From assembly GCF_000734015.1 (NCBI RefSeq), contig NZ_CP008796.1, positions 630,001 to 662,000 of the forward strand: a stretch of 32,000 nt of DNA, given 5' to 3'. Under the pieces are notes generated by a model. That model was given only the letters and a program-made list of their open reading frames with translations. It had not been told where the DNA came from and ran no database searches. Positions 3,736 to 31,324 of the stretch are shown piece by piece; within the stretch, counting starts at the first letter, position 1, and every line of letters starts with the position of its first letter. Origin of the DNA: Thermodesulfobacterium commune DSM 2178 (GTDB lineage: Bacteria; Desulfobacterota; Thermodesulfobacteria; Thermodesulfobacteriales; Thermodesulfobacteriaceae). The position numbers were made by a program, and so were the translations under genes.

Positions 3736-4689
3736 ATGAAAGAACAAGATTTAAATGTCTTAGAACAAGAAACAACCGAAGTTTTATCTCAACTTCCCGC
3801 AATCGTCGAAGAAAGTCTCCCCGCTAAATTTGACCCTCTCCAAAAATATCTGAAAGAAATCAGTAAATATCCGGTACTTACCAGAGAGGAAGAAGAACAG
3901 ATAGCTAAAGCTTATTATGAAACTAAGGACCCTCGATTAGCTTATAAATTGGTGGTCTCAAATCTTAAATTAGTGGTAAAAATAGCCTTAGAATTTCAGA
4001 AATTTTGGGCTCACAACTTCTTAGACCTTATCCAAGAGGGTAATCTTGGGTTACTTCAAGCGGTAAAAAAATTTGACCCTTATAAAGGGGTTAAATTTTC
4101 TTATTATGCCTCTTTCTGGATAAAAGCTTACATTCTTAAATACATTATGGATAATTGGAAACTTGTTAAAATGGGAACTACACAAGCTCAAAGAAAATTA
4201 TTTTATAAACTTCGCAAGGAAAAAGAAAAACTTGCAGCCTTAGGTTTTGAGCCAACTTCTGTAGAGATAGCTAAACGTTTAGGAGTTAAAGAAAAAGAAG
4301 TAGAAGAAATGGAACAGAGAATGTTTTCTCAAGACCTAAGTCTTGAAGCACCGATAGGGTACGACTCTGAAGATACCTTAGCCAGTTTTCTTAAAGATCA
4401 TAGACCTACTCCGGAAGAAATCTATGCCAAAGAAGAAATGCTTTCAAAGTTTAAAAAGCTTTTAAAAGAGTTTGCCCAAACGCTGTCTGGCAAAGATTAT
4501 GTTATCTTTCACGAAAGACTATTTACCGAAAACCCTAAAACTTTGAATGAACTTTCTCAAAAGTTAGGGATTTCTAAGGAAAGGGTTAGACAAATAGAAG
4601 AAAAAGTTATTAAAAACCTTAAAAAATTTCTTGAAGAGAGGCTACCTGATGTTCAATACTACACCCTGGCACTTCCAGAAAATCTTTAG
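3736..4689 (+). CDS. rpoH: RNA polymerase sigma factor, sigma-70 family, RpoH-like (sigma-32)
   Basis: 317 aa. Region 2 reads DLIQEGNLGLLQAVKKFDPYKGVKFSYYASFWIKAYI. An RpoH-box-like segment TTQAQRKLFYKLRKEK is present. The region 4 HTH reads LNELSQKLGISKERVRQIEEKV. Confidence 0.75.
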   Translation: MKEQDLNVLEQETTEVLSQLPAIVEESLPAKFDPLQKYLKEISKYPVLTREEEEQIAKAYYETKDPRLAYKLVVSNLKLVVKIALEFQKFWAHNFLDLIQEGNLGLLQAVKKFDPYKGVKFSYYASFWIKAYILKYIMDNWKLVKMGTTQAQRKLFYKLRKEKEKLAALGFEPTSVEIAKRLGVKEKEVEEMEQRMFSQDLSLEAPIGYDSEDTLASFLKDHRPTPEEIYAKEEMLSKFKKLLKEFAQTLSGKDYVIFHERLFTENPKTLNELSQKLGISKERVRQIEEKVIKNLKKFLEERLPDVQYYTLALPENL

Positions 4690-6997: not shown

Positions 6998-8336
6998 GGG
7001 AGTAGAATATAAATTGTGTCTTTTAATAAAATATTTTAGAGGCATAATAAAAATTTTTAATATTTTTTAAATTAATGATAACATAAAACCTAAAAGACTA
7101 AACTAACCAGGAGGTCTGTAAAATGAAAAACTTAGACTTAGATTTAGAAAAAGTTTTAAGTGAAATCTCAAAAATTGAATCAAAAGAGGGTATCAAAATG
7201 GCTGCTGCACTCCTCTTAAACGCTCTCATGAAAAAAGAAAGAGAAATATTCCTTAGAGATAGTATTGATAATAAAGCTAATGGTTACTATGAAAGACAAC
7301 TTGCCTGTTTCTTAGGTAACCTTGGTATCTCTGTCCCAAGAGATAGAAAATCTGAATTCAGACCTGCTATTCTTCCTCCTGAATGGCAAAAAGCTGATGA
7401 ATCTTTCCAGGACTTTATCCTTAACCTCGTTCTCCAAAGCTACTCCCCCAATAAAATCAAAGCCCTCTTGCAATCTATGAAACTTCCCTACTCTCCAGAA
7501 CAAATAGAAGAAATTAAAGAAGAATTGTATAACCAAGCCAAAGAATTAAAAACCAAAGAATTGCCAGAAAATTTGTTTGCTATGTTTATAGACGCTTATC
7601 ATACTCAGATAAAAGATACCGAAGCCAACAGAATCAGAAAAGCAGTTATTTATAATATCATCGGAATAGATATGGAGGGAAGAAAAAATTTACTTTCTTA
7701 TTACATTTATTTTGGTTCAGAGACGAAGGAGGACTGGCTCCAGATACTTAATGATTTGATAAAGAGGGGAGTTAAGAGGGTTATGGTAATAGTGAGTGAT
7801 GATTTTCCTGGCCTTGCTCAAGCCATAAAAGCCCTTTTTCCTGAGACAGATCATCAGCTTTGTTTTGTACACATGCAAAGGAACATCAACAGGAACATGT
7901 CTAAGCAGGATGCTAAAAAATTTTATGAGGAGTTAAGCATTATAAAGAGGATAGAGGAGTATGAGAGGGCCTTAATTAGATTTGAGGAATTATGTAAGAG
8001 TTATGAGAAGAAGTATCCAGCTTATATAAAGGGACTTTTGAAAAAGAAGGAGCATTATTTTGTTTATAAGAAATATCCTGAGGGGGTGAGGAGGTATATA
8101 TACACGACGAATGTGGTTGAGAATATAAATAGCAGGATAGAGCTGATAAGGGTAAATACAGGGGGATATTTTCAATCAATCAAGACAGCAGAGGTTGCGA
8201 TATACATAACAGTAAGTCGGATTCAGAAAACGAGATGGCAAAAACCACTTCCTTTAATTAAGTCTGCTTTATACGAATTGAGGCAAATGTTTGTAAAGAG
8301 ATTTTATAAGGAGACACAATTCTCTTGACAAGTGTC
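6998..8336 (+). mobile_element. IS256-family insertion sequence (1339 bp), apparently intact
   Basis: It is bounded by the 8-bp direct repeat ATCTCCTG. The imperfect terminal inverted repeats share the core AATTGTGTCT (7012-7021 versus the reverse complement of 8312-8321). It carries a single 401-aa Mutator-type transposase ORF. Confidence 0.85.
7123..8328 (+). CDS. IS256-family (Mutator-type) DDE transposase
   Basis: 401 aa with RBS AGGAGG. Motifs FIDAYHTQIKD, VMVIVSDDFPGL, QLCFVHMQRN and YTTNVVENINSRIE are typical of Transposase_mut/IS256. Confidence 0.9.
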   Translation: MKNLDLDLEKVLSEISKIESKEGIKMAAALLLNALMKKEREIFLRDSIDNKANGYYERQLACFLGNLGISVPRDRKSEFRPAILPPEWQKADESFQDFILNLVLQSYSPNKIKALLQSMKLPYSPEQIEEIKEELYNQAKELKTKELPENLFAMFIDAYHTQIKDTEANRIRKAVIYNIIGIDMEGRKNLLSYYIYFGSETKEDWLQILNDLIKRGVKRVMVIVSDDFPGLAQAIKALFPETDHQLCFVHMQRNINRNMSKQDAKKFYEELSIIKRIEEYERALIRFEELCKSYEKKYPAYIKGLLKKKEHYFVYKKYPEGVRRYIYTTNVVENINSRIELIRVNTGGYFQSIKTAEVAIYITVSRIQKTRWQKPLPLIKSALYELRQMFVKRFYKETQFS

Positions 8337-8344
8337 ATCTCCTG
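8337..8344. repeat. Right copy of the 8-bp target-site duplication ATCTCCTG
   Basis: Identical to 6990-6997. Confidence 0.85.
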
Positions 8345-29373: not shown

Positions 29374-30396
29374 TTGAAAGCTTATAAACTATCTTTTATA
29401 GCCAAACAAATAAACGGAGAACTGATAGGAGAAGACCTTGAGATAACAGGTGTTAATGCCATTCCTCTTGCTAAAGAAGATGAATTAATTTTTATAGACT
29501 CTTTAAAAAAAGTACCTCAGGCTAAAGCCTCTAAAGCAAAGGCTGTGCTTTGTCCTAAAGGTTTGGCCAATCAATTAGAAGAAAAATCTGTGGTCGAGGT
29601 AAAGGAGGTTAGGTTAGCCTTTGCTAAGATTACTGAACTTTTTAAAAAAGAACCTGCTATAAGATGGGGAATAAGTGAAAAGGCATTTATAGAAGATGGG
29701 GTAGAAATAGAAGAACCGGTTGCTATTTACCCTAATGTATACATACAAACTGGAGCAAAAATAAAAAAAGGGGTGGTCCTTTATCCAGGAGTTTTTGTAG
29801 GGTCCTTTTGTGAAATCGGAGAAAACACCGTAGTTTATCCTAACACCGTGCTATACCCCTATTCTAAAATAGGAAAAAATTGCATCATCCATGCAGGGGT
29901 CGTCATAGGAGCTGATGGTTTTGGTTTTGCTCAGGAACCTTTAGATGAAGGCTATAAAAACGTTAAAATCCATCATTTTGGAGGAGTCTTGATAGAAGAT
30001 GATGTTGAAATAGGTGCTAATTCTACAGTTGATAGGGCTGTTTTTGGGTTTACTGTTATCGGAGAAGGAACTAAAATTGACAATTCTGTCCAAGTTGGGC
30101 ATAACGTTAAAGTAGGAAAACAAAACATTTTAGTTTCTCATACTGCTATAGGAGGGAGTGCTGTTTTAGAAGATTTTGTGATGATCGCAGGACAGGTGGG
30201 AATAGCTCCTTCAGCTAAAATTGGTAAAGGCGCAAGAGTAGCAGCTAAATCAGGGGTTGTAGGGGAAGTCCCTCCTAACACCGAGGTGGCAGGAATACCT
30301 GCTATAAAGGCAAATGTATGGAAAAGAGCTATAATTATTTTTGAAAAGCTTCCTGAACTATACAAAGAGCTTAAAAAATTCCTAAAGACTTTTTAG
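29374..30396 (+). CDS. lpxD: UDP-3-O-(3-hydroxyacyl)glucosamine N-acyltransferase
   Basis: 340 aa with a TTG start. It has an LpxD N-terminal domain and left-handed beta-helix hexapeptide repeats (..GADGFGFA..IEDDVEIGANSTVDRA..GHNVKVG..). Confidence 0.9.
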   Translation: MKAYKLSFIAKQINGELIGEDLEITGVNAIPLAKEDELIFIDSLKKVPQAKASKAKAVLCPKGLANQLEEKSVVEVKEVRLAFAKITELFKKEPAIRWGISEKAFIEDGVEIEEPVAIYPNVYIQTGAKIKKGVVLYPGVFVGSFCEIGENTVVYPNTVLYPYSKIGKNCIIHAGVVIGADGFGFAQEPLDEGYKNVKIHHFGGVLIEDDVEIGANSTVDRAVFGFTVIGEGTKIDNSVQVGHNVKVGKQNILVSHTAIGGSAVLEDFVMIAGQVGIAPSAKIGKGARVAAKSGVVGEVPPNTEVAGIPAIKANVWKRAIIIFEKLPELYKELKKFLKTF

Positions 30397-30589
30397 TTTC
30401 TTCCACAATCCTGTGGACGTCTCCTAAACATCAGGTCTTTTTGGGATTTTTAAGATGACATTCACATTGGCCCTTTCTTTTTTTATCCATGATAAACTCT
30501 AAAATTTCAGAACGTCCTTGGTTTTCTTTTACATCTCTTACGATATCCTCTTTAGTAAAACCAAAACAATAACACACCAGTTCTTCCAT
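30371..30589 (-). CDS. Candidate small selenoprotein (72 aa, Sec at codon 53) with a CxC..CxC..UC metal/redox motif, BFD-like/CopZ-N-terminal-like
   Basis: ATG 30589 with RBS GGAGAG. There are 52 codons, then TGA (30433-30431), then 19 more open codons to TAA (30373-30371). The product is MEELVCYCFGFTKEDIVRDVKENQGRSEILEFIMDKKRKGQCECHLKNPKKT-U-CLGDVHRIVEETKKSLGIF. A SECIS-like hairpin lies directly downstream of the TGA. It is missing from the ORF track because the TGA-terminated part falls below the length cutoff. Confidence 0.6.
30392..30428 (-). promoter_or_regulatory. SECIS-like stem-loop immediately 3' of the in-frame UGA
   Basis: Minus-strand RNA: UGA-UG-UUUAG-GAGACG-UCCACA-GGAU-UGUGGA-AGAAA-CUAAA. 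The upper stem has 6 perfect bp (30417-30412 with 30407-30402). The lower stem has 5 bp. The apical loop GGAU starts 19 nt after the UGA. Confidence 0.5.
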
Positions 30590-30613
30590 ATCTTTTATCT
30601 CTCCTTTTTCTCC

Positions 30614-31132
30614 TTATTTCACCATATAAACCTTTTTATCGCAGAAAACAAAAAATCTTCCTGTTTTATGTAAGGGTAACTTCCAAAACTCTTTAAAACC
30701 TTCTTCGTCAAAATCTTTAGCCTCCCAAAACAAAACCTCTCCTATGTAAAAAACATGATCTCCTACCTCGATGCCCTCTAACACTTTACATTCAAAAGTT
30801 GCCATACTCTTCTCTAACAAAGGTAACTTAAAGTTAGGACTTGGTTTAGTTTTTATGGCAAATTTTTTAATTTTATCGATTTCTCTTCCCTTGACAGAAC
30901 CTACTTTAAAAATAAGCTCATAATCTTCTGTTATATTTACCGAAAAAGCTTGATACTTATCGATAAGCTCTTTTGTATAATGTTTAGTTGCACAGGCAAA
31001 ACCTATGGTAGGAGGTTCTACAGAGATAGGAGTTATCCAGGAACAAGCCATAAGATTAGTTTTTCCTTGTTCTACATTTCCGCTTCCTACAATTACAGCC
31101 GGTCTTGGATGAAGAGCCCTGTAAAATTTCAT
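30614..31132 (-). CDS. Flavin reductase-like FMN-binding domain protein
   Basis: 172 aa. RPAVIVGSGNVEQGKTNLMACSWITPISVEPPTIGFAC.. and ..GDHVFYIGEV are typical of the Flavin_Reduct fold. It lies 24 nt upstream of the small Sec-candidate ORF. Confidence 0.8.
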   Translation of the reverse strand: MKFYRALHPRPAVIVGSGNVEQGKTNLMACSWITPISVEPPTIGFACATKHYTKELIDKYQAFSVNITEDYELIFKVGSVKGREIDKIKKFAIKTKPSPNFKLPLLEKSMATFECKVLEGIEVGDHVFYIGEVLFWEAKDFDEEGFKEFWKLPLHKTGRFFVFCDKKVYMVK

Positions 31133-31324
31133 ATTTAGCCCCCTTTAGTTTTTTAAGCTTATATTTTAAACACTGGTTATTTTATCTTACCAAAATAAAA
31201 AAACAATAACTAACCCACCGGGTCCTCAAACCTGATTTTTTTTGCTATTTATTATTGACAAAAAAAATTTTTAAGCTACTTTTCTACTATTAATTATAAA
31301 AAAACAACATTTAGAGGTAAATCC

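Follow-up and report, generated by a model that had tools for sequence, protein, structure and literature searches.

A probable selenoprotein gene of the short BFD-like/CopZ-N-terminal-like family, annotated as a 52-residue open reading frame in Thermodesulfobacterium

Selenoproteins of the BFD/(2Fe-2S)-binding CopZ family have already been catalogued in two forms. Form 1 carries the motif GxUC, where U is selenocysteine (Sec) (Peng et al. 2016, Table S3; PMC9312934; PMC13188914), and form 2 in the same catalogue is the Csac_0668 family with the motif CU (Peng et al. 2016). Twelve genes were counted for the family in 2016, and four Thermodesulfobacterium strains, each of which has 3-5 known selenoproteins, were classed as Sec-utilising (Peng et al. 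2016, Table S2). In this study we analysed a 32,000-nt stretch of Thermodesulfobacterium commune DSM 2178 (contig NZ_CP008796.1, positions 630,001 to 662,000; hereafter the window, numbered from its first letter). Judging from sequence comparisons, the minus-strand region 30589-30371 is with high probability a genuine selenoprotein gene encoding a 72-residue short member of the BFD-like/CopZ-N-terminal-like [2Fe-2S] family, form 1. The locus belongs to an already catalogued, functionally uncharacterised selenoprotein family and is mis-annotated as a 52-amino-acid open reading frame (ORF) in Thermodesulfobacterium. An earlier note on this DNA, made from the sequence alone, had proposed an unannotated selenoprotein, which is correct for this lineage but not for the family. 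For the CopZ-family (2Fe-2S) selenoproteins, both PMC13188914 and PMC9312934 refer to the 2008 Global Ocean Sampling (GOS) paper (PMC2398784) as their source; the text of that paper does not mention the family as 2Fe-2S, BFD or copper chaperone.

The likeness to form 1 consists of a small BFD-like/CopZ-like domain, an in-frame UGA followed by a Cys codon, and a selenocysteine insertion sequence (SECIS) element immediately downstream. The window protein was likened to form 1 by motif and description, the form 1 reference sequence being WP_245779778.1. Whereas form 1 is defined by G-x-U-C, the window has K-T-U-C (Lys for Gly), its orthologue from Thermodesulfobacterium sp. TA1 has G-T-U-C, and most members have G-(R/K/T)-U-C. 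The window copy also differs from form 1 in having a flavin reductase partner, no such pairing having been seen at any of the other 80 loci described below. The presence of a CopZ-like/BFD-like [2Fe-2S] domain, for which the form 1 definition names CDD cd10141, is indicated by the model NF047645, by a link to long forms with zf_CopZ and Fer2_BFD and to the structure 2HU9, and by Bfd fold matches.

The minus-strand ORF opens with an ATG at 30589, which the Shine-Dalgarno sequence AGGAGAG (30599-30605) precedes at a distance of 9 nt, and runs for 52 sense codons (30589-30431) until it reaches a TGA at 30433-30431. The frame then stays open for 19 more sense codons (TGT-TTA-GGA-GAC-GTC..., encoding CLGDVHRIVEETKKSLGIF) up to a TAA stop at 30373-30371. 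The complete read-through gene (30371-30589) thus has 72 codons, from Met1 to Phe72, with the TGA as codon 53, the predicted Sec53. The Cys54 codon, TGT at 30430-30428, follows directly. The gene starts 24 nt downstream of a flavin reductase gene, and its 3' end overlaps the convergent lpxD by 26 nt. This entire layout is present as the earlier note had described it. The standard genetic code applies in the window, where TGA ends 6 of the 29 long ORFs, and a reassigned code was rejected on this basis. Taken alone, 19 open codons after a stop are unremarkable. The features of the window by themselves are not beyond chance; the significance of the TGA, the tail and the hairpin derives entirely from the comparative data.

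To obtain protein relatives we conducted an exhaustive HMMER search in which the query comprised the 52 residues upstream of the TGA and nothing downstream of it. Among 1.84 billion representatives there were 253 matches at E ≤ 1e-3, and about 149 of these, as representatives at 50% identity, were small proteins. The great majority of the small relatives (117 of ~149) stop exactly at the residue preceding the TGA position (...[NH]P-x-x-[RKT]), but 10 go on as Cys-Cys-L-(G/A)-x-V... and 7 as Trp-Cys-L-x-D-V.... Because the query held nothing downstream of the TGA, the conservation of the tail and the occurrence of Cys at the TGA position are independent evidence. Homologues therefore extend past residue 52 and place Cys where the window has TGA, in agreement with the earlier suggestion that the TGA replaces the first Cys of a Cys-Cys pair. 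The premise of that suggestion, namely that relatives annotated as BFD-like or CopZ-N-terminal-like carry Cys-Cys, was also right. The Trp forms (P0017, P0022, P0039, P0045, P0068, P0080 and P0110) are probably the result of TGA having been translated as Trp by gene calling under genetic code 4. In addition, public protein collections give Arg at the Sec position in P0172, P0175 and P0054, and Leu in P0166; a single nucleotide change would turn TGA into CGA or TTA.

The DNA of distant family members was collected by scanning one genome per GTDB species with the peptide pattern L[VI]CYCFG[YF][ST], derived from 11 closer sequences. The scan gave 209 loci, and 80 of them were fetched and examined. 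They originate from Desulfobacterota, Nitrospirota/Thermodesulfovibrio, Synergistota (Synergistaceae), Fibrobacterota, Dehalococcoidales and KSB1, and include loci from Ectothiorhodospira shaposhnikovii and Desulfovibrio desulfuricans; their genomic contexts are unrelated to one another. With the window and its orthologues included, there were 85 motif-matching loci, corresponding to 81 distinct genomic sequences. All 85 have TGA at this codon, followed by TGC (49 loci) or TGT (36 loci), and all 85 continue in frame with the tail C-L-(G/A/S)-D-V-(R/H)-(R/Q)-V-(V/A)-(D/E). In a freshwater metagenome, the locus L007 reads ...GGC AGA TGA TGC CTC GGA GAT GTC CGC CGT GCC GCG GAC.... The tail shows codon periodicity, with entropies of 0.68, 0.66 and 1.21 bits at codon positions 1, 2 and 3, respectively, as expected of translated sequence. 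In the full-length alignment six positions are invariant (C6, C8, C42, C44, U53 and C54).

The Thermodesulfobacterium orthologues were obtained by exact-protein look-ups, the 80 scanned loci lying outside the close genomes of the genus. A word-indexed protein search with the 72-residue product returned only three close relatives, all of them truncated. In Thermodesulfobacterium sp. TA1 (CP043908.1, locus L001) the gene order is kept, with a GGDEF gene, the flavin reductase gene, the small gene, the convergent lpxD and thrS. About 15% of the ORF positions differ in the TA1 lineage (~85% overall identity), but the TGA has been kept together with the adjoining TGT and the tail. Just 4 changes occur in the 57 nt that come after the TGA, and conservation is higher in the tail than in the ORF upstream of it. 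In GenBank the TA1 orthologue is a 52-residue 'BFD-like (2Fe-2S) protein', i.e., it is truncated at the TGA.

Downstream of the UGA the transcript can form a two-tier hairpin. The upper hairpin (30402-30417, minus strand) has a 6-bp stem UCCACA/UGUGGA (30417-30412 with 30407-30402) and an apical loop GGAU (30411-30408) that starts 19 nt after the UGA. The lower tier (30392-30428, minus strand) consists of UUUAG/CUAAA, in which 30428-30424 pairs with 30396-30392, and is kept in both Thermodesulfobacterium lineages but not family-wide. The hairpin folds as it had been drawn in the earlier note, which also placed the SECIS partly in lpxD antisense sequence. The latter is true only of the 3' strand of the non-conserved lower stem, whereas the conserved upper hairpin lies outside lpxD. 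The published criteria for bacterial SECIS (bSECIS) elements are a loop of 3-9 nt, an upper stem of 4-16 bp, a G in the first two loop positions, a spacing of 16-37 nt and a minimum free energy (MFE) of ≤ -7.5 kcal/mol (PMC13188914). The window hairpin agrees with all four bSECIS rules (loop 4 nt, stem 6 bp, GG, spacing 19 nt), and its MFE is -12.5 to -14.2 kcal/mol. No Rfam match was found for it, only sub-threshold noise.

The hairpin is conserved both in position and in pairing in the orthologous and the distant loci. In minimum-energy folds the apical loop starts 18-19 nt after the UGA in 66 of the 81 distinct sequences. In an ungapped alignment (A4) with a 7-bp helix between nt 16-22 and nt 27-33, the U of UGA being 1, 89.9% of the helix cells were paired, in comparison to 29-55% in controls with the 3' arm slid by 1-3 nt. 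Double-sided changes occur at three pairs. Pairs 26-35 and 28-33 vary on one or both sides with pairing kept; the former is never broken (G-U 46, G-C 20, A-U 15), and another pair changes from C-G (40) to A-U (5), the window being among the A-U sequences. Moreover, third codon positions are more tightly constrained within the stem (0.85 bits) than outside it (1.52 bits), which indicates that selection acts on the RNA over and above the peptide.

At the protein level, the best curated model is NF047645 (CopZ_Nterm_CC, 'putative iron-sulfur cluster-binding metallochaperone', E = 5e-15). With 55.9 bits the window protein stays far below the cutoff of 100; it covers model positions 85-137 of 138 and lacks the zf_CopZ half. 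The same model was matched by all 46 short-form sequences tested. In contrast to the model, the window has Sec for the first Cys of the CC pair, and the zinc-binding half is missing. The form 2 model NF045877 ('Csac_0668 family 2Fe-2S cluster-binding (seleno)protein') gave 22 bits against a cutoff of 190. Form 2 belongs to the same superfamily and has Sec in the same dipeptide, but there Sec is second (C-U) and in the window first (U-C), and the window protein has no counterpart of the N-terminal ~98 model positions. The Pfam model Fer2_BFD (PF04324) was sub-threshold (16.6-18.7 bits against a gathering threshold of 26) and covered profile positions 1-20 only. No curated model for the short U-C form was seen among the family-model matches. 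The window protein resembles Bfd in that its CxC domain start fits the Pfam profile and that Bfd proteins are the top structural matches of the model described below; it differs in its second motif, CxC-x8-UC instead of CxxC, and in having no bacterioferritin neighbour.

A profile search revealed about 2,600 relatives, including long forms of 155-161 residues that combine zf_CopZ (PF18423) with Fer2_BFD. The family profile had no match among the PDB sequences, and the structure 2HU9 (Archaeoglobus fulgidus CopZ N-terminal domain, CopZ-NT, Zn/[2Fe-2S]) was reached only through the long Cys form P0094 (E = 1.8e-17). Via P0094, window C6, C8, C44, U53 and C54 align with Cys75, Cys77, Cys109, Cys118 and Cys119 of 2HU9, and C42 has no Cys counterpart there (Gly106). 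The window protein is homologous to the C-terminal subdomain of CopZ-NT. It lacks the N-terminal zinc ribbon (zf_CopZ, PF18423) and the CXXC chaperone domain that A. fulgidus CopZ carries as a fusion, and it possesses the extra invariant C42 and a Sec in place of Cys118, the first residue of the Cys118-Cys119 pair. The AlphaFold (AF2) model of a 52%-identical Cys form has a pLDDT of 91.3, and in it the post-Sec tail is an integral C-terminal helix. Its best PDB fold matches are Bfd ferredoxins (TM 0.51-0.62), with weak E-values. The cluster ligands in 2HU9 are reportedly Cys75, 77, 109 and 119. On that basis Cys54 would be a cluster ligand, and Sec53 would lie next to the cluster. The U-C adjacency proposed in the earlier note is real, but its description as a redox pair is an interpretation, given that by homology Cys54 may be a ligand of the [2Fe-2S] cluster.

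Several observations weigh against the selenoprotein interpretation. The window hairpin has a fold z-score of only -1.3, and 21 of 200 shuffled sequences folded as well. The short Cys-form genes in L093 (512-721), L095 (1501-1713) and L096 (202-438), with TGT or TGC at the Sec position, keep the hairpin (7/7, 7/7 and 6/7 pairs, respectively), while L097 has a long-type Cys form that no longer carries it (1/7 pairs). The hairpin alone is not diagnostic of UGA genes, and the conserved peptide accounts for part of it; the hairpin-bearing Cys forms may be fossil SECIS elements left after recent Sec-to-Cys conversion. Neither the 32-kb window nor the 10 kb upstream of it showed selA, selB, selD or tRNA-Sec, so that for the Sec trait we rely on literature at the level of the genus. 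The assignment of the cluster ligands depends on those reported for 2HU9. Finally, in two Logan assemblies of the same strain the loss of 1 nt shifts the reading frame of the small gene: the A-run at 30478-30484 is A6 instead of A7 (L005 8707-8871, L006 4572-4736), giving a 54-residue product (P0003), and the flavin reductase in both assemblies is 100% identical. The A6 run may have arisen from an assembly error in the homopolymer, or it may be a true frameshift or phase variant.

If the TGA were an ordinary stop, the product would be a 52-residue peptide, and the downstream conservation would come from the 3' end of lpxD together with a transcript-end hairpin between the convergent genes. Gene callers and GenBank annotate the gene in this way, TGA serves as a stop elsewhere in the window, the z-score of the hairpin is weak, and the last 26 nt do overlap lpxD. 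However, not only the upper hairpin but also most of the tail lies outside lpxD, and TGA-TGY and the in-frame tail are kept in loci without an lpxD neighbour, for which reason the overlap was rejected as the source of conservation. The codon periodicity of the tail also speaks against termination. Moreover, the Cys forms have a sense codon at this position, and the tail appears to be needed, since it forms a confidently predicted helix with two invariant Cys/Sec positions. We consider an ordinary stop very improbable.

It could also be that the UGA is decoded, but by something other than Sec (near-cognate read-through with Trp or Cys, or another kind of recoding), with the hairpin acting as a mere stimulator of read-through. 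That no Sec-machinery genes were seen in the window or in the 10 kb upstream would fit this explanation, as would the database translations with W at the position, though code-4 gene calling is the simplest explanation for these. On the other hand, the position is Cys in relatives, which is the classic Sec/Cys signature, the hairpin fits the SelB-type bSECIS geometry, and both the genus and the family are catalogued as Sec-using. In addition, the window encodes YedF, a marker of selenium metabolism, at 1578-2198 on the plus strand; this had been stated in the earlier note and was confirmed by TIGR03527 (215.4 bits against a cutoff of 110), although the gene provides context and is not part of the locus. 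We consider it very improbable that the codon is read as an amino acid other than Sec. YedF (with TusA and DsrE-like domains) is followed by tRNA-Met (2268-2342) and tRNA-Cys (2585-2656), the segment spanning 1578-2656; the tRNAs of the window are tRNA-Met, tRNA-Cys and tRNA-Val. Near YedF, neither yedE nor selD was found, whether within the window or in the 10 kb that precede it (L089-L092).

That the gene is a decaying pseudogene, in which TGA arose from a TGY Cys codon in this lineage while the tail has so far escaped drift, is extremely improbable: TGA is one substitution away from TGT and TGC, and the frameshifted copy in the two assemblies would agree with decay, but independent recent nonsense mutations are incompatible with a TGA common to both Thermodesulfobacterium lineages, which differ at ~15% of ORF positions, and to 81 of 81 distinct loci across phyla, and the upstream ORF has diverged more between the two lineages than the tail.

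The selenoprotein interpretation would entail the following sequence of events. Translation starts at the AUG at 30589 and meets UGA at codon 53, beyond which the frame runs for 19 more codons. The hairpin located 16-33 nt downstream, within the coding sequence, would function as a bacterial SECIS and recruit SelB-GTP-Sec-tRNA(Sec), by analogy with the established mechanism, and Sec would be inserted at the UGA, with translation continuing to the UAA. The 19-residue tail would then form the integral C-terminal helix. By homology to CopZ-NT and Bfd, four of the six invariant positions (C6, C8, C42, C44, U53, C54) would hold a [2Fe-2S] cluster, and Sec53 beside the cluster, with C54 or C42 as its partner thiol, could constitute either a redox-active Se-S couple or a site for thiophilic metals or metalloids. 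More speculatively, in Thermodesulfobacterium the flavin reductase might pass electrons from NAD(P)H via flavin to the [2Fe-2S]/Se site, and in other lineages the same module might function alongside arsenic/metal-resistance and thioredoxin/CcdA genes.

The flavin reductase gene (30614-31132, minus strand, 172 residues) belongs to the PF01613 family, an assignment based on PF01613 in the syntenic loci and on weak NCBIfam flavin-reductase matches. It is co-directional with the small gene. A promoter-like site TTTACC-17-TATAAT (31293-31321, minus strand; 10/12, a consensus match only) lies upstream of it, and no terminator-like site was seen between the two genes. The small gene is probably co-transcribed with the flavin reductase gene. 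An operon with a flavin reductase had been proposed in the earlier note, and the 24-nt pairing stands and makes the reductase a probable partner, but the pairing is limited to Thermodesulfobacterium loci. On the other side, the convergent lpxD occupies 29374-30396 on the plus strand, its identity being based on the syntenic 340-residue gene in L001, which carries PF04613. Elsewhere in the window, an IS256-family transposase gene (7123-8328, plus strand) adjoins a CNNM/CorC-family gene (8304-9407, minus strand). The latter encodes 367 residues, in comparison to 413 in the intact gene of the sister contigs L089-L092, which lack the insertion sequence (IS). This suggests that a strain-specific IS insertion truncated the CNNM/CorC gene.

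Among the 80 other loci, 24 have same-strand neighbours connected with arsenic/metal resistance or thiol redox, i.e., Acr3, an ArsP-type permease, LMW-PTP ArsC, ArsR, ArsA/ArsD, thioredoxins, CcdA/DsbD_TM, TauE, CDF and MerR. The remaining neighbourhoods are diverse, and one Cys form follows a P-type ATPase. Two arrangements recur, Acr3-Trx-[gene]-CcdA and ArsC-ArsP permease-[gene]-TauE-Thioredoxin_3. Small U-C genes were seen within arsenic/metal or thiol-redox clusters in L007, L012, L015-L018, L020-L022, L024, L026, L035, L039, L044, L045, L052, L054, L070 and L073, mostly around position 4000. In L097 (187-1740), a zf_CopZ ORF (94 residues) overlaps a separately called BFD-like Cys-form ORF (79 residues), both lying directly downstream of Pyr_redox_2/Pyr_redox_dim ORFs that are themselves in fragments; frameshifts or assembly errors seem to have split a long-form gene and a flavoprotein disulfide reductase here.

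The most economical reading of these data is that the small protein would be a [2Fe-2S]/Se module for redox reactions or for the handling of thiophilic metals or metalloids. A more specific proposal, to which we assign a rather low probability, is that Sec53 lies in or contacts the [2Fe-2S] centre of an uncharacterised Se-containing Fe-S module that reduces or chaperones arsenic or thiophilic metals, with a dedicated flavin reductase as its electron donor in Thermodesulfobacterium and thioredoxin/CcdA systems in that role elsewhere. According to the same proposal, the family would be far larger than the 12 genes of 2016, considering that one narrow peptide pattern gave 209 loci, and most of its members would be mis-annotated as stubs of ~52 residues.

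The immediate consequence of this analysis is a correction of annotation, in which the 52-residue 'BFD-like (2Fe-2S) protein' becomes a 72-residue selenoprotein. Truncation deprives the protein of two invariant Cys/Sec residues and of a structural helix. Most entries for this family in the databases are cut short in the same way, the 117 relatives mentioned above ending at the Sec codon, and some contain a spurious Trp. Therefore, the domain models and functional inferences for the family, coming from truncated entries, are built on incomplete sequences. The locus does not represent a new kind of selenoprotein. What makes it of further interest is the scale of the truncation and the role of Sec beside an Fe-S site, for which the linkage to arsenic/metal-resistance and thiol-redox genes in other lineages and the pairing with a flavin reductase in Thermodesulfobacterium provide leads.

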